From assembly GCA_032718475.1 (NCBI GenBank), contig JAUCBJ010006988.1, forward strand, positions 62,001 through 126,000: a stretch of DNA of 64,000 nucleotides, in the 5' to 3' direction. Each line of letters opens with the position of its first letter. The first letter of the stretch is position 1. Shown here in pieces: positions 20,561 through 62,500 of the stretch. The position numbers and the translations under genes are program-made. The notes below the pieces were generated by a model, which made no database searches, was not told the origin of the DNA, and saw nothing but the letters and a program-made list of their open reading frames with translations. This stretch comes from Nemertoderma westbladi. Lineage: Eukaryota > Animalia > Xenacoelomorpha.

Positions 20561-21349
20561 TGTTCGCGCTTTTAGACCTTTTAGCAGTTTAACCTGCCAA
20601 TTTTAGTTGTCCTCTTGTTTATAAATCGACTAGCCTATATCAATTATTTAATGTACTGAAGTTACATCAGCCGAAGCCAGTCTGTGCGTGATCATTCACC
20701 CACAGTTAAGGGAGACTGGATTCGGGTGCTTTGAAAGTTATTGCAATGTATACCTACTGTATTATTCGATTGATCGTTACTATATAATCTCTGACAATAT
20801 ATTTACTTTCCTTTAGGACGTGGCGCTTTAAGTATAAAAACAGAGTTATGACTTATACTAATCACAACGAGATGGCCACAGAGTTTCGTAAATAGCGCAT
20901 TCTTTAGGAGATGCTTTATTATCTTTCATACTACCTCACACGACTTCACACTACTTAACACTACTGCGCACTAATCTGCCGACCGTCACTGAATTTGATC
21001 ATATATATATATATATGATCAAATTCAGTAACGGACTTCCAAAACAGAAGTACAGAAGAATTCCAAGCCGGTTCTGAGGCTCAGAAATGTATACAAAGAC
21101 CGTAATGCATTGTGCGGGTTTCCATAGGCCCCTGTCCGACATAAAGTGAAAATCGCTCTGATTGGCTGAATAGGCAGAACAAAGAGGTTCCACGTCTACA
21201 GGAAATCAGCTGACAGATTTCGTCATCTGAGCTCCAATCTTTTAGAGTATTATGATCATTGCGGCAAAAATGACTTGTTATGTCCGCAAAAGCACCTACA
21301 CTGCGCATTGCGGGAAAAATGACTTGTTATGTCCGCAAAAGCTTTTACA
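20561..21349 (-). repeat. 3' LTR of Bel/Pao copy 1, lacking about 350 bp present in the other LTRs
   Basis: Aligns with 43214-44349 and 59596-60726; preceded on the minus strand by the purine-rich tract GGGAGCGG (21350-21357). Confidence 0.93.
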
Positions 21350-21445
21350 CCGCTCCCAGAAAATGGGATTTAAGTCTATAAAATATAAAAAATCACAGTT
21401 TCTAAAATATAAAAATACTCTAAACTATGTTAGTCCTTCCTGAAA

Positions 21446-23526
21446 TTAGTCCTTCTTACGTGAACGGTGTTTACGAAGTTTTTTGAGGCTAGCAAGAGTC
21501 CTTTTCTCTTTGAGGCGAGCCACTTTACTAGGAAGGCTATAACTCCTGGATGAAGGGTGCAATACGATTGCATCGGAAGGTTTAGGGTTACGGTCGGTGT
21601 ATCCGCCGGTCGAGGTACCCGGTTGATTGATATCAACCTCAGTGGAACGAGGTCGAACAACCTTTAGAGCGTGTTTCAGGACAGCAGCTCTTACTGGTCC
21701 CTGACGGGTCGATTGCACGAGAGCGGTAGGCGGACCGTGAGTAGTGAGAAATTTCCTCGGTTTGATGGTTCTTTCCAACTCGCGTTCTTGGGCTCTATAC
21801 TCATGGGGTCATCTAAGAACTTCTTGTAGTTCTGGATGCGAGTTGATGAACAAGTCACCATATTCCGGATCTTGACGGATGAAGTTGATTAAGTTATAGG
21901 AATTAAGGTCATTAGGATTAATATTCCTGAGGTACTTGCGAACAAATTTGGTCGAAATATTCTCGCCAACACGCTTCATTAGCTCGTAGCTAGGTGTGCG
22001 AGATTTTTGCTCAACGGAAGCAAAGAGATACGGGTGAAACGCATAAACTCCTTCATAGGCACGTCCAGTGTAGTATTGATGATGTGACTCGTAATGGAGA
22101 TCCGCGTTAGCTTCCCAGGCTCGAATGTAGCATAGGGCAACCATTTCGTCTACGCTTTCCAGATCTCGGTTGAAAGGGCAATCAAAACTTGCGTGTCCTT
22201 TAAACTGGCAATGATGTCATTGAGTCATAAATTGAGGGCAGACTGCGACAAGTTCGATGTCCTCCTCGAGATTCTGGATTTCTCGATCGAACTGAGGTAA
22301 AGCTAATTCTTTTACCGCTTGGACTTGCTGCTGCAATTTACATTTATCTAAGCAATCGTAAGTTCCTTTTCCGATCTTTTGCCGAATAGCGTCTAACGCG
22401 TTTCGTACAACGCTCTCCTCCACCTCGGTGACGGGTTGTATCGGGGTTAAACCGGGACGATTATACGGGTTGAACGGCGATATTAAATGTCCGCGTCCCA
22501 ATCCGGCTAAGTAGGATGGGTGAATATCTAGAGAGCCCACTACCGGAGTGCCACCGATTAATTGTTCGGGTAACACTAGATCTTTGAACAGTGAGTACAG
22601 TTCAGGAGGATCCGTTATACTATTAGGATCAAGAGTCTGAGGTCTCACCAGGGAATGAGGATGTCTGACCGAGTATTCCGGAACTCTGATCATCGGTTTA
22701 TTTAAGGATCGTTTGAGTTGAGCGAGCGTAGGTGATACGTCAAACAAGTTTCGCTCGAAACTCCCGTAAGTACAGCGAGTAAAACTGTGTTTAGCGCAAC
22801 GTCTCCGCGGATGTTTATGTCTTTCCGTTTGTTGGTTGGGTCTAGGGCATTCATCGCAATAATACTAAAGACGCATGTCTTGCAGGGGAAACGCGGGTGA
22901 TCTTTCTCCAGTTTTACAATATTCCTCCATCTGTTCGAAGCTGTCCGGTACAACAGGTAGCGGTCGATCGGCGGTAAGATACATCATAGTGAAATAGAGT
23001 CGTTTGAGTTCCATCATAGGGTTATGATGTATACCTTGAGGATATCGAGTTTCTAGATTTTGTTGACTGGCTACATTGAGATATGTTTCTCTCAGGAATT
23101 CCAAATATTCGTTGAAGTCACTGCGTTTATCCGGCTCTTCAACATCTTCTCTTTCGAGTCGGTTTCGAATAGAATTCTCGTGTTCGATTCTCAGTTTATC
23201 GCTCCGACTCCGCTGGGTATGATATTTAAATAGGACCATTTCCCTTTGGGTGTCTACATCGTCCGTATCGTGTAAATCGATAGGATGACCAGTAGTTAAG
23301 AAGTCCATATACGTACCATTACGATGCGTATAGCGAGCGGTGAATTTTCTATAGTCCAATTCACGCGTGAGCTGTTCTTTTGACATTGGCGGTTCGATAT
23401 AATGGCCATCGTCCTCCGTAGTGGGTTGACTAGCGTCGCCCCTTATTAAACTATCAACAAACGCTTGTGCAATGGTAGGGTATATCGCTCTCTGATACCA
23501 AGATCATCTTCTATCAACTCAGTCAT
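21446..23526 (-). pseudogene. Accessory ORF3 of Bel/Pao copy 1, exonuclease-like region deleted
   Basis: ORF-track pieces starting 23386, 22747, 22144 and 21778 share one frame, separated by single nonsense codons that are sense codons in copy 2. Confidence 0.85.
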
Positions 23527-24998: not shown

Positions 24999-25534
24999 TT
25001 AAGGCCCCCAAGTACCCCAGCCCCAATTTCAATTTCTCTTGCTTCTGGGCCAGGCCACTCTCACACCAAAATTCCCCCAAGGTGCTTTTTCATCTTATTA
25101 GTAAACTTAGTTTTAGAAATTAAAAAAATACGTATATTTCACAAAAAAATATAAAGGGTAATGGTCATTTAGTGTATTTCACTAACTACATAAAAATTCC
25201 GGTTCCGGCCGGAATTCCGGCCGGAATATTCCGGCATACTGAATTCCGGTTCCGGTTCCGGCCGTGTAGGATAGTGATCACTATCAGTATCAACTGTATG
25301 TACATATAAATGTAAACCTATAAGTAACAAGGGAGATTATTATTCTAGAACTGAGATGAAAGAACATAGCTACAGTATACGAATATCTTGTATTCTAATA
25401 TTTACATAATTAAAGTAATACATGAAAATATACTCAATGTCACTTCTTTCATTATCATACATGGCGCTGCGAGTATTAAAGAACCAGTGAGATAACCCAT
25501 CTATTTATACACTGTAGGTCACTTAACTATAAAA

Positions 25535-27172
25535 ATGGGAGATAAAACCGAATTGTCAACAGACCAATTACAGGCCATCATTAACGCTGCTGTCTCTGCA
25601 GCCGTTTCTCAGATGGCAAATGTACCGTCAAATTCAGCTCAGAATGAAACAATACGGGGACTACAGATCCCTATTCTTGATTTGGGCATCGATAAATCTC
25701 CAAAAAGTTTTTCTGACTGGAAACTGACTTGGGAAGACTATGCCAATCTCTCCGGTTTGACCACTTTCCCAGAATCAAAACAAATGCGCGTCCTTCGACT
25801 GGCTCTATCCGCTGAAACCAGGGATATTCTAAACGCATTTGATTTACCTGAAACCAGCACAGTTCCAAATGCCATTGCTCGTTTGGAGACTTATGTAAAT
25901 GGTGCAGTCAATATAACAATGGAACGACGAACATTTCGCCTAAGACACCAGGAGGAGGGCGAATCCATAGAGGACTGCTATCTTGCTCTGAGAAACCTAG
26001 CTCGTTCATGCAAATTCAATGACCCGGAAATCGATCAGTATAACCAAGCACTAAAAGACCAACTAGTTGAAGCTCTCACTAATGAAGAGGACAAACAAAA
26101 GGTCTTGAAATTACGGGATGCCCCTTTGAATACCATAATTGATGAGTTAAGAGCTGAAGAATCTGCATCAGCCAGTGCTGCTGCTATTGTTAAAAAGGAA
26201 CCAGCCATCAATGCTGCTAAGTCTTCCACCTACAAAGGAAACAAATGGAAAAATAAGGCAACTCAAAATGATGATACAACATCACACAATCAACAGAGTA
26301 AAAGGTTGTGTAAATGGTGTGGTGGAACCTGTTCATCAAAGGACGTTTGTCGTGCCAAAGATAAGATATGTGGCTTCTGCGACATAAAGGGCCATCTATC
26401 ATCTGTCTGTAGAAAAAAGAAATACTCAGGATCTCCAGAAACCCACGATATCTTGACTGTCACTATCATGCGATCAGGAGCATCTCAGAGCCCATCTGTC
26501 AAAAGTTCCCCTACAACTGTCATTGGTGTACAACATCATGATTTTAAAACATCAATTCCTATGCTTCCTGACTCTGGAGCTGACCTATGTGCAGTAGGAC
26601 CAAAATTTATCAAACTTCTAGACATTGATATTGACAATCTCGCCCCTTCACCTTATATAACCACAGTCGCGGATGGTTCTAAAATGTACCCATTAGGCAA
26701 GGTGCGAAATGTCACACTAACAAAAAATAATCAGAAAGTGGAAACAGACATTCACGTTTTCCCACACGTCTCAACTCCACTTCTGTCATGGACAGTAGCA
26801 AAGAAATTCAAGATAATTTCACCAACATTTCCAGAGCCATGGGTAACTGAAACCTGTTCAAAAAATAGTCCACCATTAAGCAATAAATCTCAAACAGCAT
26901 CAAATACAAACCAATCAAGAACTTATGCAGAAGTTGTTTGTCAACAACCTCTTACAAACACTTTTCAAACCAAAAACGCTGCCACTAATAAAGAGAATAC
27001 CAATAAAAGGGATGAGGACAAAATTAATATTTTAAAGGAGTTTAAAGATGTATTCTCCGATGAAATAAAAGTAATGCCAGGTGAACAATATCACATCGAC
27101 TTAAAACCAAACGCCAAGCCGTTTTCCATTAGTGCACCAAGGACAGTTCCATTAGCATATCGTGATAGCTGA
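25535..27172 (+). CDS. gag: Gag-protease portion of the gypsy polyprotein, ending at a lesion
   Basis: FRLRHQEEGESI major-homology-like motif, paired knuckles CKWCG...CGFCDIKGHLSSVC, protease LPDSGAD. Confidence 0.9.
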   Translation: MGDKTELSTDQLQAIINAAVSAAVSQMANVPSNSAQNETIRGLQIPILDLGIDKSPKSFSDWKLTWEDYANLSGLTTFPESKQMRVLRLALSAETRDILNAFDLPETSTVPNAIARLETYVNGAVNITMERRTFRLRHQEEGESIEDCYLALRNLARSCKFNDPEIDQYNQALKDQLVEALTNEEDKQKVLKLRDAPLNTIIDELRAEESASASAAAIVKKEPAINAAKSSTYKGNKWKNKATQNDDTTSHNQQSKRLCKWCGGTCSSKDVCRAKDKICGFCDIKGHLSSVCRKKKYSGSPETHDILTVTIMRSGASQSPSVKSSPTTVIGVQHHDFKTSIPMLPDSGADLCAVGPKFIKLLDIDIDNLAPSPYITTVADGSKMYPLGKVRNVTLTKNNQKVETDIHVFPHVSTPLLSWTVAKKFKIISPTFPEPWVTETCSKNSPPLSNKSQTASNTNQSRTYAEVVCQQPLTNTFQTKNAATNKENTNKRDEDKINILKEFKDVFSDEIKVMPGEQYHIDLKPNAKPFSISAPRTVPLAYRDS

Positions 27173-27180
27173 TATCGTGA

Positions 27181-29859
27181 CTCACAGCTGAATTAGAACT
27201 GCTCACATCTAAGGGAATAATAGAAAGAGTTAGTCATCCAACCGACTGGGTGGCTCCGATTGTTGTTGCTCCAAAAAAAGGCTCTGATAATATACGAATG
27301 TGTGTTGATCTCAGTCAACTAAATCGCCACGTACGCCGTGAACGTTATTGGACACATTCGCCAATGGAGGCTGTAGCAGGAATCCCAACCACTTCCCAGT
27401 GGTACACTGTGATTGACGCTGTTAAGGGCTATCACCAATGTCCACTTGATGATGAGTCAAAAGATCTTACAACTTTCCTCACACCGAATGGGAGATACCG
27501 CTTTCTCAGAGCACCATTTGGAGTTAGTTCAATCAGTGAACACTATAACCGAAGAATGGATGAAGCTTTGGAAGGAATTCAATTCGTGAGAAAAATTGTA
27601 GATGATGTATTGATATTTGGAGCAACCTACGACGAATTAATTAGCCGAACACATGCTGTACTACAAAGATGCCGTGAACGGGGTATCACTCTTTGTCAGA
27701 AAAAGCTTCAATTTGCTCAACAAGAAGTATGTTTTGCTGGCTATGTAATTTCAGGAGGCTCATACCACACAAATCCAGATATCACAACAGCAATAAAATC
27801 ATACCCAACACCCACAAACAGAACAGACATTCGCTCTTTCTTTGGACTTGTAAATCAGGTCTCACCCAAGACATCTGCTATTGAACCTCTCCACCATTTA
27901 CGTGAACTCCTCTCTACAAAGAAAGACTTCATATGGGATGCAACACATGACAAAGCTTTTGCACAAGCCAAAGAAATACTCTCAGAGGCAATATCATTAG
28001 GATTCTTCTCAGCAAACCATGACACCCAATTGATAACAGATGCCTCTAGAATAGGTCTTGGCTATATCCTCCAACAACGTCCTCAAGGAGAGACTGGTGA
28101 GTGGACAACTATACAAGTTGGATCTCGTTTCCTAACAGACACTGAAACAAGATATGCAGTAATAGAACTTGAACTACTTGGCATTGCATGGGCTTGTAAG
28201 AAATTGGATAAATTTGTACAAGGATTAGATTTCACTATTCTTACAGATCATAAGCCTATTGTGCCAATCTTAAACAGTCACCGTTTAGACGAAATAGAGA
28301 ACCCACGCCTCCAACGTCTTCGTCAACATCTTATGCCTTATGCTATTACAGCAAAATGGATAAAGGGGTCTACCAATATTGCAGCAGATGCACTATCACG
28401 AAATCCTGTCAATGGCGATAATCAAACAGTAGATATGGCCGATATTGAACCAATTGATGTGTCTACAAGGATATACGACTCAAATAAATCGCCTTCTATA
28501 CATGAAATCAGACTATTTTCATCCGGCACAAGAGATGAGGATCTGCGAGTTGCTGAGCTGAGAAAATATGCCATTGAGGATGGTGAATACATCCACCTTC
28601 GTGAAATAATCTCCAAAAGTGGTTTTCCAAATACTCCTTCTGAACTGCCAGAGAATATTAGGAAATATTGGAGTGTCCATTCCGATCTCACTGTTGAAGA
28701 TGGTCTTATCCTACTAGGCTGTCGTCTACTAGTCCCAGCAGCTCTTCGTGCAACAGTCTTATCACGGCTCCATGAAGCACATCAAGGTATCACCCGCACA
28801 ACAGAGAGAGCACAGCTGAGTTTGTATTGGCCGGGAATGTTTAATGACATAACCTCATTTATTAGTTCATGTCGCTTCTGTCAAGAGAGATTACCAGCCA
28901 AACCACGGGATCCTCTTATACAAAAGCCATTACCAGAACGACCATTTCAAGAAATAGCCAGTGATCTCGCTATAGTTAGTGGAAAACAATACCTGATCAA
29001 TGTATGCTGCTACAGTGACTGGCCTGAGATACATTGTTTGGGAAATAATTCCACATCCCCTGCAATCATTGACTCTCTAAAAGACTTCTTTGTCCGGACA
29101 TCAGTCCCAGATGTATTTTGGTCTGACAACGGCCCACAATTCAAATGTCATAAAATGAAAGAATTTATGGCTGACTGGGGAATAGAACATAAAACCAGCA
29201 GCCCCCACCATCCACAATCGAATGGAAAAGCAGAAGCAACTGTAAAATCAATGAAAAAGTTAATTCAATCCAACCATAAAGGACACATACTCAATATTGA
29301 CGGTCTAAGACGCGCTCTTCTTTCATACAGAAATACGCCATGTCGCCGCGATGGCCTATCCCCTGCTATGAAACTGTACGGCCGACCAATTCAGGATCGC
29401 CTACCAGCTCACCGTTCTTCCTTCGACCCAAAGTGGATAAAACAACATCGTACAATTGATGAACGAACAACAAATACACAGATGAAGGCTAAAGCATACT
29501 TCGACATACATACACGGCCCAATGACTCATTCAAAATAGGGGCAAATGTTTTAATATGGAATATGATAACCCGTCGGTGGAACTTATCTGGTAGCGTTAT
29601 AGAGGTAATAAACCCACGTAAATACGTTGTTCGAACTACCAGCGGGCGTGTTCTAACACGCAATAGAAAACATCTACATCGCCAACAAATACTACCTGCA
29701 CCCATTCCGGTGAACATCAAACCGCACGTAGATCACTCGGAAAATCCACAACCGATGAACACTATGGGAAAACCAATACATTCTACAACATGTCCACCTC
29801 TGCGTAGAAGTTCTAGACAAGTTCGAAGACCAATACGCTTAATAGAGGAGATGGAATAA
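27181..29859 (+). CDS. pol: RT-RNase H-integrase portion of the gypsy polyprotein
   Basis: RT IVDD, RNase H TDAS/ELE/TDH/ADALSR, integrase HHCC and SDNG...E. Confidence 0.93.
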   Translation, partial: LTAELELLTSKGIIERVSHPTDWVAPIVVAPKKGSDNIRMCVDLSQLNRHVRRERYWTHSPMEAVAGIPTTSQWYTVIDAVKGYHQCPLDDESKDLTTFLTPNGRYRFLRAPFGVSSISEHYNRRMDEALEGIQFVRKIVDDVLIFGATYDELISRTHAVLQRCRERGITLCQKKLQFAQQEVCFAGYVISGGSYHTNPDITTAIKSYPTPTNRTDIRSFFGLVNQVSPKTSAIEPLHHLRELLSTKKDFIWDATHDKAFAQAKEILSEAISLGFFSANHDTQLITDASRIGLGYILQQRPQGETGEWTTIQVGSRFLTDTETRYAVIELELLGIAWACKKLDKFVQGLDFTILTDHKPIVPILNSHRLDEIENPRLQRLRQHLMPYAITAKWIKGSTNIAADALSRNPVNGDNQTVDMADIEPIDVSTRIYDSNKSPSIHEIRLFSSGTRDEDLRVAELRKYAIEDGEYIHLREIISKSGFPNTPSELPENIRKYWSVHSDLTVEDGLILLGCRLLVPAALRATVLSRLHEAHQGITRTTERAQLSLYWPGMFNDITSFISSCRFCQERLPAKPRDPLIQKPLPERPFQEIASDLAIVSGKQYLINVCCYSDWPEIHCLGNNSTSPAIIDSLKDFFVRTSVPDVFWSDNGPQFKCHKMKEFMADWGIEHKTSSPHHPQSNGKAEATVKSMKKLIQSNHKGHILNIDGLRRALLSYRNTPCRRDGLSPAMKLYGRPIQDRLPAHRSSFDPKWIKQHRTIDERTTNTQMKAKAYFDIHTRPNDSFKIGANVLIWNMITRRWNLSGSVIEVINPRKYVVRTTSGRVLTRNRKHLHRQQILPAPIPVNIKPHVDHSENPQPMNTMGKPIHSTTCPPLRRSSRQVRRPIRLIEEME

Positions 29860-30963
29860 AAACTGTTTTCATTCTAAACCTGAATCAATAACTGAACAAT
29901 ACACCGATTCAGGCTGGGGGAGGTGTAGGATAGTGATCACTATCAGTATCAACTGTATGTACATATAAATGTAAACCTATAAGTAACAAGGGAGATTATT
30001 ATTCTAGAACTGAGATGAAAGAACATAGCTACAGTATACGAATATCTTGTATTCTAATATTTACATAATTAAAGTAATACATTAAAATATACTCAATGTC
30101 ACTTCTTTCATTATCATACAGGCCGGAATCAAATTATCGATTCCGGGACATCCCTAATTATAATTAATTATATTTAGGCTAGCGGTCGTCGCTGCCTCCC
30201 CCTCAATGCCCCCGGACAGCGCAAGATCCTCAGCGCTGATGTACTGTCGTCGCTGTGCCTCTCGCCAATGTAGTAGCTACACAACGACAACAATATCCAG
30301 CGAGAGTCACTCCACTGTCCGTCCCAAGTGCTTAGAATTACTTCAGGCAGGTTCTTGCTACAGAGGTAGGGCAACTTTCACAACTGCGACTCGCTACTGT
30401 AAACATACTTTAGTAGTAACATTCACCTATAAATGCACAAATTCCACACAACTGTCACAAATTGTACACATTCGGGCCATTTGTCCGTTAGTCAAGTGCC
30501 TTCCAGAATGCCACGTTATTATTATGTATCCCTGGATACTAGCAGTGTGCTATTTATTCCGTATGTTATTCAATGGTGCAAGCTTTCTATTGTTCTTTTA
30601 ACTCGCTTCTAATTCTAGCGTGGTTGTTGCTATGGTGACATTATGGAAAGCTAGCAGTAGAATTAGGGTAATTCTCATGCATACAGATCTGGGATGCTAT
30701 TTAATAGTAATTCTTTAATTGTCAATATTCCCTTTTATACATGATTTTATTAATTTTATCGGCTATTGACTATATATTGAAGATTCTCGCACACTAATAT
30801 ACTTAATAGGGTGAATCTCTGCTCCCATGATCTATTAATTAATGGAATTTTGGGAATGTTATAAATTGTATAAAATAACAATTTATCAAATTCATCAAAG
30901 GATATGAATTTAAATTTATTCCCGTAAATTTTATTATTTAATATTAAAATAGACACAATTTTC

Positions 30964-31875: not shown

Positions 31876-34800
31876 TTACATTGGGGAGTCCCTAAATGTT
31901 TGTTGGATTAGGGAGGTGGTCGTGGGAAGAGTATCTTGCCTTCCATAGTTTCCGGATAGTTCTCTGTCTCTTTCCAGTAAACATAAATGACCAACTGGGC
32001 GATTGAGTTGTTGTGTTTCGAATACAATTCCAGGTTTCTTAAAGTTACGTCGCATGACGATGAGTTCTACCGATCGCACTAAATCATCATCGGATATATG
32101 AGTATCGATGATACGACCTGTCTGCCACTGCTTACGTGGAAGATCTGATTCCACAATAAGGACCATGTCTCTGGCGCTGACGTTTTCTTGCTGCGCAAAC
32201 CACTTGGTTCGAAGTTGTAGCGTAGGCAGATAATGTTTTTCGAAATGGTCAGCGACACGATGGGATAACAACTGCATAAGTTGCCAAGTTTGTCGGCAGT
32301 ATTCGTCTCCGTCCGTGATTTCCGATTGCGGGAGCATGGCTACAGGTTTCTTTAGTAGGAAATGCGCGGGTGTTAGCGCTTCTAGGGAGTCGGGACTCGA
32401 TGAGACTGGCATAAGCGGTCTCTCATTAAGATAGGCGGCGATTTCTTCCATTAACGTCCGCAAAAGTTTGTCCGTGAGATACGCGCGGCAAGGCACTATA
32501 AAGTGAAATGCGGTCTTCACGCTCCTTATTAATCTCTCCCAACTTCCTCCCCACCAAGGGGCATCGGCGGTGTTGAAGGTCCAGCTAGATGCTGTTACCC
32601 TTAGCTGATCGTCCACCTGTCTTTGGTTCCAATCTTTAACGTAAGCTTTGATCTCATTATTGGCGCCAATGAAGTTCGTTCCCTTATCAGATCTCATCGT
32701 GTTGCTAGTTCCAAAGCGAGCGATCTGTCGGCATAAACTCAGTATGAAGCTGTTGGTAGATAGATCGTTCACCATATCTAGATGGATCGCTCTACAAGTC
32801 ATGCAGACAAAGATGACACACCATCGCTTGACTATAGTCCTAGCACAATATACCTCAATAGGGCCAAATAAATCCACACCAGTATTGGTAAAGGGTGGTT
32901 CATAGAAGCTTACTCGTTCCCTAGGTAATTCTGCCTCTCGCTGTGTTAAAGGCCTACTGAATGCTTTCCTACAGGGTATACAGTTCCTAAGAACTTGGTT
33001 CAGAGCTCTACGGGGCTTATGGAAATAATAGCGAGTTCGAATTTCGCTCAGAACTCATTCTCTACCAGCATGGTAAAGCCTACTGTGAACATCTACAATC
33101 ATCTTGATTTGTATTTCAAGATTTCTAATGAGTATGGGAAACTTAGTGTCAAAGGACAATGGATCATTAGTTAGTCTCCCTCCAACACGTATTAACCCAT
33201 CTATCATTGTGCTAGAGAAACGATCCCTTAAGCGCATCTGTGGATTTCTCAACAACAGGAAATACTTATCGGAATCTTCATAGCATTGCAGGAGTCTCAG
33301 TATCTGCTTATTGGTTTCTTCATGCTCTTGGTAACTGATCTTCTCCGTCAGAAACCTATCCGACACTTTGTAAGTGGGAAGATCTTTAATAGCATGGACC
33401 TTTTCGGATATTGTTGGAGCAGTATCATTAGCGACCTTCGTCCTGGAATAGTGATGATGGAAACATCTTTTCAGATACACGATGCCCTTACAAAGCCAAT
33501 TCCAGGAGCTATAATGATTTATCGCTCTCTGCAAAAGAGGTGAGAGTCCTTGCGAGACGTCTGGTGTTCCAGATTTCCAGTCTCTTTCTCTGATTTCTAC
33601 AACAGATTTATTTGTGGCGGGGGAGTTTAGATCCACAGCATCGTCCCCGGAGATGTGTAGTACAGACAGATCTATCACGGGTTTAAATAACTTTGATTTA
33701 CTCGTCCGGGTTTTAGGTTTGACTTTCTCCGTTCCCTTGGCTTGTCTAATCTCAGCCATGGTGAGATGAGGAGGCCGTTCATCCTCTTCTTTACTCAGGA
33801 AGTCGGGTCCACCTAACCAGTCTGGAGTATCTATCAGTTCTTGCGGGGTTGCTCCTCTAGAGGCAATGTCGGCTGGATTAATCGTCCCAGGGCAATGTCT
33901 CCATTGATCTATATTAGAGCGACAGACTGATAGACTTCATTGGTTATGTACTCCAAAATGAGTAAAGCATCAGTCCAATCGACAGTTTTCTCCAGTGGAT
34001 AGTCGATCTGTTCTGTTACATTCCGACCGATGGCTGTAGCGTATAGAGCCGCCTTTAACTCCGCTCGAGGAACTCGTAGTGTGGTGTTTATCAAAGCCTT
34101 AGAGGTGACCAAGGCAACTTTAATTCCATCCGGAGTTTCAACCCTCAGGTAGGCTACTATACCTATTCCCATATCGCTGGCGTCTCCAAACACATGGAGT
34201 TGATAGGAATACGTGGGGAGAACGTGACCAAAATATGAACGGGAAATCGTAAAGTTCTCGAAGGACGGTAGAGAATCTTCCCATTTCATCCACTTCTTTA
34301 GTAGTTCTCCCTGAAGTGGATCATCCCACGAGTGGTTTTCAAGCCACATTTGTTGCACTAAGCTCTGAGCAACCAATATAACTGGACTAATAAATCCCAA
34401 TGGATCGAAATAAGTGCTCAGGATACTTAGACAAATCCGTTTAGTTCTAACTGGATTATCTCGCTGTTTTAACTGGAAAAACTAGATATCTCTCACTGTG
34501 TCCCATTTTAAACCAAGTGTTTTGGTTTCCGGAAGATCGTCCTTGATGAGGTCCAGATCTTTAACACCGCGGTCTTCTACTGGGATCAATTCCAGAAACT
34601 CACGGGACTTACTAGTGAATTTGGTTAGTCGAAATCCACCACGTTGCAAGCACTCTACCATTCCCTAGGCAACATCAATGGCTTCTTCCACTGATGCGAG
34701 GGACTTTAAATTGTCGTCCATGTATATATCCTGTTTGATGTTGTCAATAACCGCTTTAGAGAAGGCGTCTCGGTTGTCATCAGCAGTGGTACGCACTACT

Positions 34801-37800
34801 GAACAAGCGTTCGAGGGGCTCGAGATAATCCCGAAAGCCTAGATGGTCATCCAGTACTCCACCGGTTTTAGGTTGAGATCTCCTTCAGGCCACCATAGAA
34901 ATCGTAGGCTGTCTCGATCCCTATCCAGCGCCTTGACTTGTAAGAACATGCCTTCTATATCTGAAGCGAAAGCGATAGAATATTGCCGTAATCTTAATAG
35001 TATTCCCAACAGTGATTGAAGTAAGTTGGGTCCCGGCAACAATTCGGAGTTCAGGGATTGACCCATGTAAAGGGCGGAGCCGTCGAACACTACCCGGACT
35101 TCGTTGGGTTTACCTGGTTTGGGAATGTAATGATGTGTTAGATAATACGTTCTCTCTGTTATGGGTGTTTCTTCCGGTACTCGCTCCGTGTATCCCTTAT
35201 CGATAAATTTCTTCAGCTAGGTTTTATACATTTCCCTGGCTGAAACATTGGCCGTAAGACGCCGATGTAGTTGCGCGATTCTCTTTTCCACTAAAGGTCG
35301 GTTATTTATAAAGTTGGGTTCTCGCCGTCGGAACGGAAGACCAATCTCATAGCAACCTTAATCTTTTAGAAAACGGGTAGTCGTTTCCTGAATCTGCTTG
35401 GCTCTCTCTTCCTCGATGGACAAGGCCTTGTCGTAGGAATTAGGCTCTACGGCTTCTTGAGTAAAGAATCATATAGCGTGTTCATCGCGAATTTTGTTAT
35501 TGTATCGATCTATCACTTCATTTAATTCGTCGTTGTATGCGAATTGTCCGCCATGATTGATGAGATGGCACAGATTTACTTGGTTTACCCAAGTTTGATT
35601 TTTGGTGAGGAGGTCGATTGTATTTTCCTCTTCATATAATTGGGTGATATCGTCATTGTCTGAGGAGTATGGTGTTCCCTCAGTTGTGGTTTCTCCATCT
35701 CTGATTTCTTCTTCCCATTCACTCACCTGATGTATCCTGTCATTAGGGAGTCTTTCCATTAGGGTTCTATGGGAAGGTCCAGTGAAGTACCAACCTACTC
35801 TCGTTCTTCCCGCGTACGTTTGTAATGGTTGCGGTCGAGCAGGCCATTTTTCTAAGGTCTCAAGCGCTTCGTGCGCATTTTGGCCGATTAATATCTGAAC
35901 TCCTGGGTAATCGGTGTTGAATCTAGGGATATCATGTTGCTGGGTAAAATGGTCTTCATCCCAGTTGTAAGGCTCCACTTGGCTAGTAGCAAAGTTATTT
36001 ATCACCACCATTTTTACCGACCTTACGCTATAATCTCCTAGTTCATCCTGGGGAGTGGGTAGCGCACCCACATAGTAATCTGTAGCTACTGTGGATTTCC
36101 AAACCTGCATAATTCCTGAAAGGTTCAACTTAGTTCGGAACTTGGGTTGTCCAGCAAAGATGTCTTCGGCTAGTTCTTTGTCAATAAATGTACCAGTGCT
36201 GCCGGAGTCAAGGAGGGCGTTTACTATGAGACTCTTCCCTAGCCCATGGACTCTCAACTGCACAACAGGAAATTCCCGGATTCCGAAGGAGGAAGTTGGC
36301 GCCTTCCAAGATGATTGTCAGTCCGGAATAGTCAGTCGAGGCTCTTCATTGTCCGTTTCATACGTAAGTGCTCGATACACCGCGATGTTTATCATATAAC
36401 AGAATTCGTTTTCGTCGGAGAATTCGTCCGTGTAGAATCCTTCCATCTCAGAGCTGTGGTCAGTGTCGTTCACATCACTGAATTGGACATGTAGTTCGGG
36501 CTCACTTACCTGACTTTTGCAGGTTCTGTCAAATTCTGTGTGCAGCAAGATATGATGTTTCGCGCCGCACTTAGCACACCTAGCATCTGAGTAACAGGTC
36601 CACCGTTGGTGTCCTCGTCTGAGGCAATTATAACACAACTGCTTATCCCACATGACATCACGTCTATCCTTAAGGGATTTCTTCAAGAATTCATCACACC
36701 CACTTAATCGATGGGGCCCGTCGCACAATGCACATTTGGGTTTGATATTGCTTTCTTCCATGAATTCTCTTAGGAGACATAGGAGGAGTTGTTACCTGTT
36801 CTCTCCTGTCACTGGTTCGAGACTTAAATTTACTTACGTCTTTTCTTGGTTTGTTGACATAATAAGATCTTACGGTGTCTTTCCCGCTGTTCTCCTCGTA
36901 TGAGGTTTGGCTTTCGCGTTGTCTGTATAACACACTGGTGTTACTTTTCTCCTAGAAATGGGTTTTTCACTCACCTTATTTTCAGGTGTCTTCTCTCGGG
37001 ACTGCTTTAGGAGCTGTAATCTTACCTCTCCATTTAAGAATGACATGAGATCAACCATGGTAGGGTCCCTTTGTTGCTGGTCCATCATATAGAGAACTCT
37101 TTTGTCCCAACGCGTACCTACTCCACCTTTTGGCAAAGTAGATGCTACAGCTCCAACAACCATAGAACTCTGATATTCCTGAGACTTACCTAGCCAATCT
37201 AACTGTCTACAGATCTCCTGGATCTCATCGGAAAATTCTATAATCCCGCTGCTAAGAAACTTTCGGGGCGCTCCTAATTTCGCATACAAATACCTAGCTA
37301 TGTTAGTCCTATTACCATACCTGATGTTTAGTGTATCCCAAACTTGTCTTAATCCATCTGGATGTCCAATAAACTTTAACGCCATTAACTTGGGAGGTCC
37401 TTCCAGGCACTCGATGAGGAATCTAAGTTTCTCTCCGTTGGATAGTACAGAGTTCTGTATGTTATCTTTATAATATTCATTAAAAGGTAACCATTTTACC
37501 GCTTGGCGAGTTTCGGTTCTAGCCATTTGACGTGTAAAACTTTCTTAAGCCATCGTATTATTTAATATCGAGTTATCAGTATATAAATTTCTCGGATTAT
37601 GGTCAGATCTATATGGGATATCATTGTCAACAGGTTTATAATTACCCTTAATAGGGTTTAATATAGGAGTTTCTACTTCACTAGCAGTATAGATGTGTGT
37701 AGGCTCCACTCCTTGCGCATGAAATACTTCAGACCTAACAGGTTGACACATTGTTACAGGGGATGGTGGTATACCCATTTGTATATTTACTAATTTATCG

Positions 37801-39900
37801 CTCTCTAAAGCGATACTCTGCTGCACTTCTTGCAACTCTAACCTACTCTCTCTTACTGTTCCCTTTAACTGCTGAACAGTCCCTTCCAACTCTCGGACCT
37901 GCTGGGAAGAATGTAATTTATGTTCTTCCAGCTGCCCGAGCAGGCGATCCATCCCCCGCCGTCCCTCGTCTACCCACTCAACCGCCGAAGCGGGAGCCGC
38001 CAACATAGTAGTGGGGTGACGCGTAGGGACGACGGGCGACAAATCATTTATGTCTTGCTCGGCGTCCAGGACCGGGAGTGATTCAGGGGCTGGTCTACTG
38101 GGCACAGGTAGTTTAGTACTGTGCAAAGGGAATTTAGAGTTAGGTTCTGTAAGTATAGGGGTCTGTATCACTGGAGTGACTTCAATGACAGGCCTAATTA
38201 TTTCGGGCTCATCTACTATAGTAGGGAGTCTGTCTACTCTAATAATTTGGTCTGTGGGTTCAGAATTACCTAAGTCTACACTAGCCAGTTGCCTTCTCAC
38301 CGCAGGAGGTAAATTAGGTAACTTCTGACGGTGTGGCGTTCTTCTACGTCCACTTGAACGAGCTTTATTACCTCTACCTTCGGGATCTGTTGTATCGCCC
38401 TCATCGGAGGAGGTAAATCCCTGTCTTCTGGGAGTAGATCGACTCAGTAACTGCATCTGAGTAGCTGTCCTTTGTTTCTTCAAGTAATCTTGTTTCGCCT
38501 GAAGGTTCTCCAGCTCTAGTTGGGTAGTCGCTTCAGACGCTTTCAGTTCTGCTTCTGCCACTGCCGCCTTTCTTTCAGCCTCTGCAGCTAACACCTTTCT
38601 CTCAGATTCTGCCGCTGCTGCTGACCTTCGGTCTTCTATTTGCCGTTTCTTTAATTGTTCTTCTTGATCCATTGTCATGAGGATGCTTTCATCAAATTTA
38701 GCCTGCTCCGCGGCTAATATTTCCGCATCTAACGAGTCCAACACAAATTTGGCTCCCTCACTATTAGGATGAAGTCCAGCTAGCCGTCTCCTTAGCTCTT
38801 TGTCACCTATAAATCGTTGATAGTCCGACAGATAGATGTCAATAGCATCCTTCTTCTGAGGTTTTTCGGATGTAGCTTCGCCTTCCACTTGAGAAAAGGT
38901 AGCGTCTGTTGATTCTCCGTGGGTTGCGCGCTCAGTTAGCTGAACTTTCCATTGTGTCGTTCCCTGGACTTTAAGACTCACCCGTTGGAACCAGGTCTTT
39001 ACGGCAACTTGCAACGACGTGTCTTGGCTTCTCTTCGAGGCTTCCTCAAAGGCTGAAAGGATTAGTCTGATCCGTAAGATTCGTTCTCGAACTTGATAAA
39101 GCAGCTCTCCCTGCTCTTGAGGTCCTTGACGTTGTTGAAACAGGTGTTCCTCTAATCGCTCCAAAGAGCTGAAGAATCCCTGGACATATCCTGCTGCCGA
39201 CCTCTTCCACACAGCTGGATCTCGAGTGTCCCTTACTACTCCCATCCTGTATAAGTCTTCCCAGGCAGCTTCTGATAAGTTGAAAGGGAGTCCGGGTCCA
39301 GGGAAGTTCCATTGCGTCTCGACAATAGACCTCAGTTCCTCCATCGTGTATCCCGCATAACTGTCCCTGGTCGATCGCTTACTTCTCGCCCAATCGATTT
39401 GATGTTCTTCCACAGCGATCAATACTCTAGTGAGTACGGCCCCAGGAAGAATTAGAAGTGGATCCGGATAAACCACTTCTGTCATCCTTGCTCCGATTTT
39501 GGGTGTCAACTCTACAGTGTCTGAACTACTGGAGTTATCGGGCTGTTGAGAAATAAGTTCTCGGTTAGGGTGCTGCTGCAGTTTAACAGCTGCCTCTTGG
39601 TCCCGCTTGACTTGAGCCCTAGTGCCTATAATAGACCTATGGTGCTTTACTAGCCTAGGGTCTGACACTACTACTGTAGGGATGACCTTTCTTACAGTAG
39701 GAGGGGACTTGGACTTTGGTCTCAGATGTTCTATACTCTTATCTGAGTCGCAGACTGTTCTTTCTAGGAGACTATCTGACAGTGTTTGCTTTGTGTTCGC
39801 GGTATTTCAACTTTTCTTAACGCGAGTTGAATATTTTTTGGATTTATTTAAAATGAATATTCCGATATCACTACTGGGTGCGGGAACATGGGATTTGGGC
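31876..39900 (-). pseudogene. Bel/Pao gag-pol polyprotein with many stops and frameshifts
   Basis: Gag core (EKLRFLIECLEG), triple knuckle CALCDGPH / CYNCLRRGH / CAKCGAKHHILLH, protease LLDSGS, RT GPNLL and YMDD (34713-34724), RNase H FGDAS and PRAEL, integrase DLFGP, SDKGTNF, GGSWERL. The start codon is uncertain. Confidence 0.93.
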
Positions 39901-40104
39901 ACATTCAATGGACTGGGGGCGATTTATGGGCGAATATTGGGGCGACTTATGGGGTACGGGACTCATTTTATGTATTTAAGGGCCAGGGGTGGGAGGCAAA
40001 GTTAAGCAGTATTCAGGTTTCTCTGATTACTATTAGGCCTAGCCAACTTCCTGCTGCCTGTAGAGGTGGATTTGGTAACTCGCTAGGTCTAAAGGACAAG
40101 GACT

Positions 40105-41503: not shown

Positions 41504-41750
41504 ATACCAGTATACTTATAGTATATATATAAGTATTATTACAGACTAGGATTAGTCACAGAATACCAGTATATAATTTCAGACTAAATTTATATAAATA
41601 AATATAATAAGCCTACCGTAAATACAGGTATACACCTATAGTATATATAAGTACTATTATAGACTAGGATTAGTCTCAGAATACCGGTATATAATTTCAG
41701 CCTAAATTTATATAAATATATAAAATAAGCTTACTGTAAATACTGGTAAT
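41504..41750. repeat. Tandem duplication of about 120 bp in the Bel/Pao leader
   Basis: Two copies containing GACTAGGATTAGTC and AATACC(A/G)GTATATAATTTCAG. Confidence 0.8.
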
Positions 41751-43201
41751 GTCAATTATTTGATAATAACTGAATTTCTTGATTTTAGGGTTCCTTCCCT
41801 TTACTTTATTACTGTTATTAAGCAGTAGTCCAACTGATATTAAGACCTAATTGATGTATAACAGGCCTACTATTTTATAAATCTGTTTGAGTTGATTTAT
41901 AATATATATATATACCCGTACAATGGGTTTTGACAATGTTTGAAATAAATGTTATTATTTCTGGGTAAGGAGTCACTACACAGATAATTCTACTTTACTA
42001 AGTTACTTATCACTACAAATTACTTTACAATTACAGTTTGAGATTACAATCTCTAAATAAACACTAAAAAGTTACACATACAATTTTTAGGGTAATTTTA
42101 TAAGAAATCTACAAACCAGTCTAAAAAGGAGTTAGAATTTCTGGTTCTTACAAACTGACAGGAACTATGGTATTTGAAAACAATAAAGCAGTAGTAAGTA
42201 AGTTGCGTTGTCCAGATAAGGAAATACCACCGTCTGACGACTTATAGTCTTAGCTCTATAAGTACTACGTTATGTACCCGGAGTGTCCTTACCTAGAAGT
42301 TAATTACCGAAGCCAACCAGAGCCAACGTGCCTATTAACCACGTTACAACACAAATATACTGCCTACACACCAAATTACTTTCGGAAAGCACTGTACGCT
42401 AAACCCTAAATTGGGTACAAGTACTTATACAACAAATAATCAGCAGTTAAATATACTTAAACAGCCAAAAGAAGCACGGTAACTGCTGGAGTGACCGGAG
42501 CACAAAATCACCAGTCTTTACCTACACCAAGCAGCCCTGATGTAGTACCGGGGTTAATTTAACTATAACGGTATGTATAACAAGCACAATTACTGTAGGA
42601 ATAAACTTGGGGAGTTGTAGGTTGCGAATACTCGCATAGACTCTGAATAATAAATATTACGCTACCCGTGCAGACTATTTAAATAAAATACAGACCAAAT
42701 GCTGGCAGACTACCGTCAAGCCTAAATAAACTACAGTATATGCAGACTCCGAAATGGTTAGTTAGTAGGCGTTCTAACCGAGTAGTACGACTTATTCTTT
42801 CGGGGGGGATTTACCTTACAACAGTGGATGCCCCCACCTTCCTAACTAGCACTTTATCGGACAGACACTCTACACACACTGTAATCGCTTCAGACCTAAC
42901 AACAGTTAGACAACAATTCGGCCTACAAATTATTTATACAATCTGAGCAGGCTTACACGCCTTCTGCTCAATATTACACTTACAGATAAATAAAACTGAC
43001 AGAAATAAGTAAAATCCCAATAAAAAACCAGGGCTGCAGTCCCTGATTAAATATCAAGACCTACTGGTATATAATTATCACAATCGAATAATACTGCTGT
43101 ACCTGTAAGTACCAGTTCGGGTAGTTGGGCAGTTAGGCCTACAGCTTACCGTCCGACCGGTACATTCGACTTTATTGCCTACTGTGCAATAAAGAATTTA
43201 A

Positions 43202-43213
43202 TAAATCTATTAT
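43202..43213 (-). promoter_or_regulatory. Putative self-priming primer-binding site
   Basis: Minus-strand ATAATAGATTTA directly abuts the LTR end and is the exact complement of LTR-internal 43979-43990; no TGG-type tRNA PBS nearby. Confidence 0.65.
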
Positions 43214-44349
43214 TGTTCGCGCTTTTAGACCTTTAGCAGTTTAACCTGCCAATTTTAGTTGTCCTCTTGTTTATAAATCGACTTTAGCCTATATCAATTA
43301 TTTAATGTACTGAAGTTACATCAGCCAAAGCCAGTCTGTGCGCGATCATTCACCCACAGTTAAGGGAGACTGGATTCGGGTGCTTTGAAAGTTATTGCAA
43401 TGTAGACCTACTGTATTATTCGATTGATCGTTACTATATAATCTCTGACAATATATTTACTTTCGGGGAAATATTAACAGTTCCTTTAGGACGTGGCGCT
43501 TTAAGTATAAAAAGAGAGTTATGACTTATACTAATCACAACGAGATGGCCACAGAGTTTCGTAAATAGAGCATTCTTTAGGAGATGCTTTATTATCTTTC
43601 ACACTACCTCACACGACTTCACACTACTGCGCACTAATCTGCCGACCGTCACTGAATTTGATCATATATAAGGAGGATTGCAACTGACACATGTAGGGAT
43701 TATGAAATAGCATTTAATTCACACAAAAACCACTATAATGTAAGTCGCAATTGCTACCGGTAACCTGTTCCTCTTACCTTCAGTAATCAAGAAGATTGGG
43801 GGTTTTATGATTATTTATCGGTATTCTCCAAATATATCAGCAATATACATCAATATAACAACAATTAATAACAGGCCGTAAACAGAAGTAAAATAATGCG
43901 GTGAACAGTCAGCATGTCGATGATCCAGGTGGTTGAGTTAATGTTTCAGGCAGTTGGTGGCAAGATTGTAGGTGTCGGATAATAGATTTACATTCTTATA
44001 ATCAAAGCCATCAGATGTTTAGGCCAAAGTCTGAAACTTCCAAAAAAGAAGTACAGAAGATTCCAAGCCGGTTTTGAGGCTCAGAAAGGTAAACAAAGAC
44101 CGTAATGCATTGTGCGGGTTTCCATAGGCCCCTGTCTAACATAAAGTGAAAATCGCTCTGATTGGCTGAATAGGCAGAACAAAGAGGTTCCACGTCTACA
44201 GGAAATCAGTTGACAGATTTCGTCATCTGAGCTCCAATCTTTTAGAGTATTATGCGCATTGCGGCAAAAATGACTTGTTATGTCCGCAAAAGCACCTACA
44301 CTGCGCATTGCGGGAAAAATGACTTGTTATGTCCGCAAAAGCTTTTACA
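43214..44349 (-). repeat. 5' LTR of Bel/Pao copy 1 (1136 bp)
   Basis: Boundary confirmed by three different flanks; minus-strand CCAAT near 44161-44165 and AATAAA at 43588-43593 are present in all three LTRs; about 49-bp tandem duplication at the U3 end. Confidence 0.95.
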
Positions 44350-45259
44350 GGGCGATAAAGGACCATTTGAGGGGCGATAAGTTCCCAGGGGGCGATAAGG
44401 TCCAGGGGCGATAAAGGTGCAAGGGGCGAGATAAGGTCCTACAATCCCTATTTCTCAGCTGTTTCTCCACGAAATCCAGATATTGTTACATATTTGGAAT
44501 CCTCCTAACGCTTTCTTTCTATTGATATGAAAAAAATACGACTAATGTGAAGAATGACAATGATACGGATGGTGCGATTTCGCAAAAGACACTTTTTTAA
44601 AACGCTTATATTAGTGCTGAAATCAAAAACAGAAGTTATTGAAATCAATTGTCAATCGGGAACTGAAATTGTTTTCATATATTTTTGCAACATTTGATGA
44701 GACGGGGGGGGGGGGGGGGACTTGACGCAAATGCCATCTCGTCTTATTAATATCCTCAACTCTATGTTATAACTAAGACAACGGATCAGATTACATTGGT
44801 ACTTATTCTAACCAAAACAATAAACTAAAGTCAATAGAACAGGTTACAGTTTTATTTTTCGGAGTTGGCCGTTGCTCTGGAAACTAAACTGCCTACTACT
44901 GTTTGTACAGTAGGTATGCAAAGTTCAGTCAATATAAACCATTGGACTAAAGTTTGTCTGGCCAAATTTGTGGATAACCCAAGTAACCCCACCAAGTTAC
45001 CTTTGTGCTGTTGCCAAGTAACCGATATATCCATGTTGTTAGGGAAAAAAATAATTTGAAAGCGGAATAAGGGATCCTTTTTGGGGGGTATAATATAAGC
45101 AAAATAATGTAGAATAGAGATAATTGGTTAGATTTGGATTACCATCTCTTTTTGAGTAGATTGAGTGGACTATTACAGTACTGTATTAAGACCTACCGAC
45201 TGATGCTGATACGGTTACAGCTCCAGGGTTAGTGGTAGTGTTAGGTGTCTCAGTGTATA

Positions 45260-46201: not shown

Positions 46202-46356
46202 TACAGTATAACGTTCTGGCATTAGGAATGCGAAGTGTAATAATACCATCCTCCATTCGTTCGTACACAGTACTGCAGTAACCCCTAGTACAAACAGCAT
46301 TTTATCGAATTTACTACTATCAGACAGTCAGACTACTGGACTATAATTGTAAATCC

Positions 46357-59595: not shown

Positions 59596-62500
59596 TGTTC
59601 GCGCTTTTAGACCTTTAGCAGTTTAACCTGCCAATTTTAGTTGTCCTCTTATTTATAAATCGACTTTAGCCTATATCAATTATTTAATGTACTGAAGTTA
59701 CATCAGCCGAAGCCAGTCTGTGCGCGATCATTCACCCACAGTTAAGGGAGACTGGATTCGGGTGCCTTGAAAGTTATTGCGGTGTAGACCTACTGTATTA
59801 TTCCATTGATCGTTACTATATAATCTCTGACAAATATATTTACTTTCGGGGAAATATTAACAGTTCCTTTAGGACGTGTCGTTTAAAGTATAAAAACAGA
59901 GTTATGACTTATACTAATCACAACTAGATGGCCATAGAGTTTCGTAAATAGCGCATTCTTTAGGAGATGCTTTATTATCTTTCACACTACTTCACACGAC
60001 TCCACACTAATTCACACTACTGCACACTAATCTGTCGACCGTCACTGAATTTGATCATATATAAGGAAGATCGCAACTGACACTTGTAGGGATTATGAAA
60101 TAGCATTTAATTCACACAAAACCACTATAATTTAAGTCGCAGTTGCTACCGGTAACCTGTTCCTCTCACCTTCAGTAATCAAGAAGATTGGGGGTTTTAT
60201 GATTATTCATCGGTATTCTCCAAATATGTCAGCGATATACATCAATATAACAACAATTAATAACAGACTTCCAAAATAGAAGTAAAATAATGCGGTGAAC
60301 AGTCAGTATGTGTTACAATAGTAATTAAGCAATGTTACGAGTAATGGGCCAAGATAATAGATTTACGTTGTTGTAATCAAAGCCATCAGATGTTTAGGCC
60401 AAAGTCTGAAACTTCCAAAACAGAAGTACAGAAGAATTCCAAGCCGGTTCTGAGGCTCAGAAATGTATACAAAGACCGTAATGCATTGCGCGGTTTTCCA
60501 TAGGCCTCTGTCCAACATAAAGTGAAAATCGCTCTGATTTGGCTGAATAGGCAGAACAAAGAAGTTCCACGTCTACAGGAAATCAGCTGACAGATTTCGT
60601 CATCTGAGCTCCAATCTTTTAGAGTATTATGCGCATTGCGGCAAAAATGATTTGTTATGTCCGCAAAAGCACCTACACCGTGCATTGCGGGAAAAATGAC
60701 TTGTTATGTCCGCAAAAGCTTTTACACTGCTCCCAGAAAATGGGATTTAAGTCTATAAAATATAAAAAATCACAGTTTCTAAAATATAAAAATACTCTAA
60801 ACGATTAGTCCTTCTTACATGAACGGCGTTTACGAAGTTTTTTGATGCTAGCAAGAGTCTTTTTCTCTTTGGGGCGAGCCACTTTACTAGGAGGGCTATA
60901 ACTCCTGGGTGAGGGGTGCAATACAATTGCATCAGAAGGTTTAGGGTTACGGTCGGTGTATCTGCCGGTCGAGGTACCCGGTTGATCGATATCAACCTCA
61001 GTGGAACGAGGTCGAACAACCTTTAGAGCGCGTTTCAAGACAGCAGCTCTTACTGGTCCCTGACGAGTCGTTTGCACGAGAGCGGTAGGTGGACCGTGAG
61101 TAGTGAGAAATTTCCTCGGTTTGATGGTTCTTTCTAACTCGCGTTCACGGGCTCTATATTCATACGGTCGTCTATGAACTTCCTGTAGTTCTGGATGCGA
61201 GTTGATGAACAAGTCACCATATTCCGGATCTTGACGGATGAAGTTGATCAAGTTATAGGAATTAGGTCATTAGGATTAATGTTCCTGAGGTACTTGCGAA
61301 TAAATTTGGTCGAAATATTCTCGCCAACACGCTTCATTAGCTTGTAGCTAGGTGTGCGAGATTTTTGCTCAACGGAAGCAAAGAGATACGGGTGAAATGC
61401 ATAAACTCCTTCGTAGGCACGTCCAGGGTAGTATCGATGACGTGACTCGCAATGGAGATCCACGTTATCTTCCCAGGCTTGAATGTAGCGCAGTGCAACC
61501 ATTTCATCTACGCTTTCCAGATCTCGGTTGAAAGGGCAATCAAAACTTGCGTGTCCTTTAAACTGGCAATGATGACATTGAGTCATAAATTGAGGGCAGA
61601 CTGCGAAGATGTATAAGTTATTGAGTCTACAATACACACAATAGATTTCCATTGTGGGTTGATCTTGAAAGTAGGAGCAGGGTACGCTTGAGTCCACCGG
61701 GGTGAAATGGTCTCGTGATGCGCATAATCGGCAACGTTTCCTAGAAACATAATTGGCATGCCGATAATCGTATGCGGTGAGACATTGTGGACCTTGATAT
61801 CATTCCAGGACGTAGTCATTGTCACTGCTCCTGGGCGCTGTGGGTTGAATCTCCTCGGACTCTAAGCAAATTGGTTCGTCTTCCAATTGCATAGCTGAGG
61901 TATGTGTAGCTGTCTCCTCAAGCGAACCCACTGTTTGAACTTCCACGATAAAATAACCTGTGGGGATTCGGGGTCTTTGTATGACAGAGGAATGTAAGTT
62001 CTGTATACAAATGTCCTTGAAAATGGCGAATCCAGCGCTGTCTAACTTCTCAGCAGCTGAGTTTCTTAGGCTGAGCTTAGTCAAAGCGCGGTCCTTGAAC
62101 TGACTATCAACGTTACGGAACAGAGTCAGAAAGCGCCTAAAACATTCAAATCGGATGAATTTATTGTGTTCATCTAGCTTGGCGAGTTTGGTTCCAAGTA
62201 ACAAGGGATGAGCGCGTATGGTGCGACTGCACACATCGGCTAGCCAACCGGCAAGTGCGGCGTTCTCGAAGATAGTGTATATAGCTAATGAGGAACGAAG
62301 TGGAACACTCATGAAGCTATAAACGACGCCAGGTGCAGTTAATGGTCCGTCGAAGTATAATCGAGAATAATGATCTCCATATACTTGTTGATAGTTGATA
62401 GGGTTTCCGACTTTGAAATTCCATCCATATTCTTGAAAGGCAAGATGTCCGATGGAGGTTCGTTGGACTTTATTGATGCCGCTGGATGTATTGGCATACA

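Follow-up and report, generated by a model that had tools for sequence, protein, structure and literature searches.

The Bel/Pao retrotransposon in the window (the whole 64-kb stretch of DNA that was analyzed) has no tRNA-type primer-binding site (PBS) at its 5' LTR; instead, the 12 bases adjoining the LTR are an exact complement of a 12-nt stretch inside it. Related families have sites of different sequence, and the complement in the LTR follows them. As judged from these sequence patterns, it is very likely that the elements prime reverse transcription themselves, with either the 5' or the 3' copy of the LTR stretch as the source of the primer. The most novel feature is that the primer sequence is split by a canonical-looking intron in 10 of the 18 families that have it.

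The Element in the Window

Element 1 is a broken Bel/Pao LTR retrotransposon at 20561-44349 on the minus strand, with 23,789 bp between its TSDs and ~18.9 kb (about 19 kb) when a nested gypsy element is left out. Three copies of one LTR, all on the minus strand, were found by self-BLAST and a three-way alignment (44349-43214, 21349-20561 and 60726-59596), and together they set the position of the 3' end of the 5' LTR (...GCGAACA, at 43214). The main features are as follows.

43214..44349, minus strand: 5' LTR of element 1, 1136 bp, TGT...ACA (self-BLAST, three-way alignment)
44350..44354 (5' side) and 20556-20560, minus strand: TSD CGCCC, 5 bp
43588..43593, minus strand: AATAAA, present in each of the three LTRs, likely the poly(A) signal close to the border between R and U5
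31876..39806, minus strand: gag-pol of Bel/Pao type, its frame broken by stops and frameshifts
25264..30120, plus strand: unrelated young Ty3/gypsy element nested in element 1, 198-bp LTRs, 99.5% identical
21446..23503 (element 1) and 60805-63973 (copy 2), minus strand: extra 3' reading frame, broken, between the integrase and the 3' LTR
21350..21357, minus strand: purine-rich tract (an 8-mer) before the 3' LTR
20561..21349, minus strand: 3' LTR of element 1, in which an internal deletion took out the primer and the splice donor
59596..60726, minus strand: 3' LTR of copy 2 (the second family member), with the identical 12-mer at 60354-60365

Element 1 belongs to Bel/Pao on its proteins. The domain order of gag-pol is gag-PR-RT-RH-IN, and it consists of DUF1759 (5.7e-11), a triple Cys-His box (CX2CX3HX4C, CX2CX4HX4C and CX2CX3HX4H, at 36791-36318), a protease with the motifs LLDSG..LIG (36317-35469), an RT, the Pao Peptidase_A17 domain in the RNase H region (2e-37) and an integrase with DUF5641 (4.5e-18). 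The available text of PMC554778 gives both the triple Cys-His box and the LLDxG and LIG motifs for Pao-like elements. The RT piece in the window is 35-60% identical to the RTs of its relatives, and the 60 integrase homologues mostly have DUF5641. Thus, the traits of membership that were found are the Pao domains in order, the Cys-His box, a 1136-bp TG..CA LTR, a TSD and a purine tract, of which the CGCCC TSD is weak evidence alone because it lies within a short tandem repeat.

The 3' and 5' LTRs of element 1 are identical at 735 of 750 compared columns. The gap left by the deletion in the 3' LTR holds an inverted ~25-base copy of its far side (21007-21035), which is a fold-back junction around a TA run. 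Contigs assembled from DNA runs of the same organism are stacked on the LTR in many variants, and this fits a large repeat family, with the reservation that depth does not equal copy number. About 3.4 kb (39806-43213) separate the PBS from the first gag frame, and this region includes several tandem repeats (40107-40931, 41502-41748).

The extra 3' frame matches no Pfam family at the cut-off. It has a weak match to a CCHC zinc knuckle, and ~1.6 kb of the frame seems to be missing from element 1. One piece of it resembles 3'-5' exonucleases in Atlas at 0.87-0.88, which is below 0.9 and thus a lead only; the same piece has a single weak relative (P0181, E 3e-5).

The rest of the window contains a family of long-armed fold-back elements, built of inverted repeats (45258-46203), related pieces of which lie at 3729-4265, 16538-16880, 19200-19668 and 44447-44865, as well as tandem arrays at 6033-7800, 46840-47587 and 58413-59060 with units of 16, 68 and 33 bp. 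ARAGORN found no tRNA genes in the 64-kb window. Three host genes are present, and the coding part of NIP7 is one unbroken frame. This NIP7 is no more than 74% identical to that of any animal listed, which marks the host as an animal with no near kin among them.

18201-18809: dual-specificity phosphatase
47959-53340: INTS7
55611-56186: NIP7

The Self-Complement at the Edge of the 5' LTR

43979..43990, minus strand: predicted self-primer, 12 nt, ends A-T then C
43202..43213, minus strand: predicted PBS (from sequence), abuts the LTR at offset 0, no TGG
43914..43978, minus strand: hypervariable segment starting at the 3' end of the primer (approximate lower bound)

An earlier note on this DNA had claimed a perfect 12-nt complement at the LTR edge in place of a tRNA-type site, with the 12-mer retained in copy 2, and both claims are confirmed. 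Bases 43213-43202 are the exact complement of LTR bases 43990-43979 (12/12) at offset 0 from the LTR end, and G43991 may extend the helix by one G-U pair with 43201. TGG does not occur within 6 nt of the 5' LTR end. An exact complement longer than 8 starts nowhere else from -25 to +39 of the LTR end, sub-strings excepted, and dinucleotide shuffles of the LTR gave at least 12 bp in 6 of 5000 cases at offset 0 and in 12 of 5000 when offsets 0-4 were allowed. The identical 12-mer is present in the LTR of copy 2 (60365-60354) and absent from the 3' LTR of element 1, where it is deleted.

The LTR copies diverge starting at the primer's 3' end. The two full LTRs agree at all 14 columns of the stretch formed by the G, the 12-mer and the C that follows, and at 7 of the 10 columns just upstream of this conserved island. 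Only 19 of the 46 aligned columns beyond the island are identical, and the flanks have 49 of 50 upstream and 44 of 49 downstream. Likewise, contigs from four of four runs leave 43920-43970 uncovered, and in five of the joints listed the alignment starts again at 43974-43980. The window family is represented by a single 5' LTR-PBS junction, which comes from a dead copy.

Co-Variation of Predicted Primer and Site in Relatives

Relatives were collected with an integrase profile (22 sequences) from metagenome contigs, and the best 80 of at least 565 confirmed Bel/Pao loci were taken. The LTR end could be assigned in 29 of the 80 loci and in the window, on the basis of two LTR copies in 12 cases, a sister locus in five, terminal inverted repeats in nine and a weaker judgment by eye in four. 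The other 51 were left out as too short or without a clear 5' LTR, and L024 and L015 were excluded for want of a firm LTR end. Removal of 6 sister loci gave 24 non-redundant families. The exact LTR-end pattern had no match in the metagenome contigs, and neither of two scans of viral contigs gave a confirmed relative.

The 12 elements with two LTRs, from these best 80 of at least 565 loci, divide cleanly. All eight that do not have a TGG contain a 10-12 bp Watson-Crick self-complement that starts 0-3 nt past the LTR end, and all four TGG elements reach only 4-5 bp. In the larger set, again from the best 80 of at least 565 loci, 18 of the 24 families have a self-complement of 10-13 bp; the remaining six are the four TGG elements plus L020 and L044 (6 bp or less), whose LTRs are cut by contig ends. 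As controls, a site compared with the LTR of another family gave at least 10 bp in 4 of 552 pairs, and a window shifted downstream did so in 5 of 360. The distance between the LTR edge and the end of the helix is 0-4 nt throughout, and five of five TGG elements have no such helix. The predicted primer ends in AC in 15 of the 18 families and in AT in three, and a C follows in 13.

Each family has its own site sequence, with proteins ~35-45% identical to those of the window, and the complement in the LTR follows it; therefore, primer and site co-vary across families. The earlier note had named this as a check of its self-priming inference, which is now strongly supported. The window fits the pattern of its relatives and is an outlier in one respect, the distance from primer to LTR end (765 nt versus 73-222 nt in the 17 relatives).

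Two further observations come from individual relatives. In L051/L059, L065/L075 and L047, sister LTRs, like those of the window, differ by repeats or indels soon after the primer 3' end (seen by eye and not counted). L028 has two inverted segments downstream of the PBS, one of 14 bp and one of 12 bp and both perfect (involving L028:266-290 and L028:602-647), that pair with the first exon in the LTR, and these are possibly a flanking duplex like that of Tf1.

A Predicted Primer Split by a Probable Intron

In 10 of the 18 families (best 80 of at least 565 loci), the complement arises only after a GTAAG..AG intron in the LTR is removed. These are L013, L026, L028, L047, L051, L057, L060, L064, L075 and L078, together with the sister loci L059 and L065. 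The removed segment is 71-423 nt long, starts with GTAAG and ends with a pyrimidine followed by AG, and 4-8 nt of the primer lie after the acceptor. The primer is contiguous as read in the other eight families, including the window; in one of the eight, L062, the match stands directly after an acceptor and the first exon lies off the contig.

Two checks were run because the first search for split primers required splice motifs. In a motif-free search, the ends of the gap were GT..AG in 11 of 14 elements, and the next pair of ends occurred in five. These 11 are the ones that the splice-motif search had picked. The GT..AG join gives the best or a tied helix in eight of the 11, and a join without splice ends is 1-2 bp longer in three. 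A blind scan, made with no chosen LTR end, gave hits on the sense strand of 13 of 42 loci and on the antisense strand of none of the 42. Among these hits, L052 is new, and the one in L080 falls beyond the LTR of that element and probably reflects chance.

Two elements bear on how such introns are kept and lost. L047 retains the donor, the acceptor and both halves of the primer in two LTRs that are 71% alike. In L050, the 5' LTR carries an acceptor and the 3' LTR shows the primer joined, at the place where the sister locus L044 has a donor. Comparison of these sequences suggests a likely case of natural intron loss, although the contig may instead be a chimera of two copies.

The window itself has no intron within its primer among 28 candidate junctions, and its LTR contains a donor-like site farther on.

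43771..43777, minus strand: strong splice-donor-like site AAG/GTAAGAG, downstream of the primer, in both full LTRs (GTGAGA in copy 2)

An intron that starts at the 43777 donor would be copied out of the progeny if it were spliced from the genomic RNA, and so the donor would more likely yield an mRNA that skips the PBS.

Folding and Promoter Signals

43170..43194, minus strand: leader hairpin of 9 bp on the 3' side of the PBS, pair probability 0.24-0.96 over four folds

The main helix in the window is weak. It is AU-rich, with -10.7 kcal/mol when the G-U pair is counted, and the loop that it closes is 765 nt long. Its predicted pair probability is 0.04-0.06 for an RNA starting at 43991, 0.34-0.41 for one starting at 44030 and 0 for two earlier starts. 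Hence the fold of R, U5 and leader that the earlier note had proposed as a check came out against it, in that equilibrium folding as modeled does not favor the helix (0-0.41 over the start points). The leader hairpin and a small U5 hairpin that had been described are both present, and in one predicted structure, which concerns the window only, U5 forms a long stem of its own beside the PBS. Flanking duplexes of the Tf1 type were not found in the folds of the window RNA. A second segment (43907-43889) had been proposed to pair with the end of U5 next to the main helix; the segment is there in the sequence, but the duplex does not stand out, with -8.1 kcal/mol versus -14.6 to -16.1 for other LTR windows and a pair probability of 0.0 in four of four folds.

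The earlier note had placed the transcript start near 43990, downstream of a CCAAT near 44163. This argument is not supported; a 1-base insertion interrupts the motif in the LTR of copy 2. Seven relatives have a TATA-like box upstream, and the primer starts 31, 49, 52, 95, 124, 135 and 144 nt after it. In six of the seven, the distance is 49-144 nt and not ~30, which would imply that the primer need not be the first bases of the RNA. By this reading of the sequences, it is probably not always so.

Descent

A tree of RT-RNase H-integrase (LG+G4, midpoint root) was built from 45 rows, of which 28 were labelled and the other 17 were chosen with no label or no score. A branch with 100/99 support divides it into 27 rows, which include 18 self-complementary elements and lack TGG elements, and 18 rows that include the window. 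All five TGG elements and three split-primer elements are also on the side of the window. The branch of the window is long (1.09), and the window is unplaced. Its join with L080 was marked as a meeting of long branches and set aside.

The earlier note had suggested that self-priming arose independently in the lineage of the window. The tree does not support this, because self-complementary sites occur on both sides of the split and a topology constrained to keep 18 self-complementary elements in one group is not rejected by the AU test (p 0.157, 22 rows), a result that does not by itself show one origin. Therefore, with a single origin unrejected and the window on a long, unplaced branch, an independent origin is neither shown nor excluded. 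The end motif that the families have in common leans toward common descent.

Proposed Mechanism and Alternatives

We think it probable, from the sequence features described above, that the window family primes its minus-strand DNA from a piece of its own 5' RNA. The 12-nt stretch in the 5' LTR, which is the 5' copy of R, would anneal to the 12 bases adjoining the LTR. Since the helix is unfavored at equilibrium, it is probably chaperoned by the Gag nucleocapsid. By analogy with Tf1, RNase H would nick at the A-pyrimidine end and free the 3'-OH of the primer, and RT would extend from the nick. Strong-stop DNA would end one base past the primer and there jump to the 3' R; an end and a jump at that base would explain why the copies diverge from exactly there. 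Non-templated bases on the cDNA ends, as with Tf1 RT, would also fit variation from that base.

In the relatives with an intron, host splicing of the transcript from the 5' LTR would assemble the primer. The junction, inside the primer, would never be copied, and the LTR upstream would be templated by the unspliced 3' copy, so the intron would persist through each cycle. Priming would then be confined to the RNA's spliced 5' end, and the unspliced 3' copy would offer no full rival primer. Contiguous primers, such as that of the window, would be intron losses or the intron-free state. With somewhat less assurance, we favor the wider reading that a large and old part of Bel/Pao is self-primed, usually with a primer built by the spliceosome, and that the window is an intron-free, long-loop form.

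The elements might also be self-primed from the 3' copy of R, with a nicked or processed 3' end, on the same RNA or a dimer partner, as the primer. This is unlikely, but several observations would fit it. Because the primer is upstream of an AATAAA-like signal, each copy of R probably contains it; the distance from its end to such a signal is 1-89 nt in 13 relatives, and the 5' fold is not favored in the window. However, the signal in the window is 385 nt past the primer, so that the natural 3' end falls elsewhere, and upkeep of the intron would need a spliced 3' copy and an unspliced, cap-proximal 5' copy, which seems the less likely way round.

Priming from the 5' piece is also to be preferred to two explanations that involve no self-priming. 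The helix could have a structural or regulatory role (packaging, dimerization or a splicing sensor) while a host RNA, for example a tRNA fragment, primes at or near the site, and half-tRNA primers do exist in Ty1/copia according to the available text of PMC6317226. Nevertheless, we regard this as quite improbable: nearly every family has a different site, a change that a fixed set of host RNAs would not track; a gap of 0-4 nt always separates the end of the helix and the LTR edge, the place that the 3' end of a primer must occupy; none of the five TGG elements has the helix; and there is no Rfam match in 42600-44400. For the window, one might suspect that the match arose by chance or that a dead copy was rearranged locally, given an AT-rich sequence, a single junction, a broken element and an inverted duplication elsewhere in the 3' LTR of element 1. 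The rarity of the match in shuffled LTRs (6/5000), the conserved island in the second LTR and an offset and end motif like those of 17 other families already largely refute this explanation, to which we give very little weight.

Comparison with Known Systems

The ICTV description of the Belpaoviridae gives an 18-nt PBS for tRNA-Arg or tRNA-Gly, a genome of 4.2-10 kb and LTRs of 0.2-1.2 kb (PMC8742986). Element 1 resembles these viruses in its triple Cys-His Gag, its PR-RT-RH-IN order, its Pao-specific domains, its TG..CA LTRs and its animal host, but it has no tRNA PBS, is ~19 kb long without the gypsy element and has the extra 3' frame.

According to the available text of the papers cited, self-priming has been described for Tf1/sushi elements and the plant element Tcn1 and predicted for the copia lineage TAR (PMC6317226, PMC7175516, PMC10085805). 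The primer of Tf1 consists of the first 11 nt of its RNA and needs a three-duplex 'pretzel' (available text of PMC10085805), RNase H cuts between bases 11 and 12 (PMC7175516, likewise in part), and Tf1 RT appends non-templated bases to cDNA ends (from the accessible portion of PMC11042837). As in Tf1/Tf2 and the Tf1/sushi group (including Tcn1), so far as these sources describe them, the Bel/Pao elements have no tRNA site and have a 10-13 nt LTR-derived complement adjoining the 5' LTR. They differ from Tf1 in that they belong to another superfamily, the primer often seems internal, the loop in the window is 765 nt and the primer is intron-split in 10 of 18 families. No match to a chromodomain was found in element 1, which has Pao domains instead and so is not a Tf1/sushi element. 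By analogy, then, it likely works like Tf1 from outside the Tf1/sushi group.

The TAR lineage of Ty1/copia (Houba, Osr-1) is similar in that self-priming was predicted from sequence within a superfamily that otherwise uses tRNA, and this prediction is a precedent for a repeated origin of self-priming. TAR elements are plant copia elements, however, and the part of PMC6317226 available does not mention an intron-split primer. As for Bel/Pao, the main text of four surveys (PMC3118150, PMC554778, PMC6238403 and PMC8556966), to the extent available, is without PBS, tRNA or 'self', and the accessible parts of PMC8220671, PMC2774666, PMC12451622 and PMC3601003 have nothing on Bel/Pao self-priming. 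Thus, in the literature available to us we found neither self-priming nor a splice-built primer in Bel/Pao; subscription papers, Repbase Reports, GyDB and supplements may mention them.

Significance

If the proposed mechanism is true, it would overturn the description of the Belpaoviridae as tRNA-primed, extend self-priming to a third LTR superfamily and add a start of reverse transcription that depends on splicing. Because annotation tools seek tRNA sites, it would explain the many Bel/Pao elements that have no findable PBS. Such elements would also be predicted to evade silencing by 3' tRNA fragments. Finally, a primer that is assembled by splicing, with a junction that is never copied, would offer an answer to the question of how an intron can last in the LTR of a retroelement.
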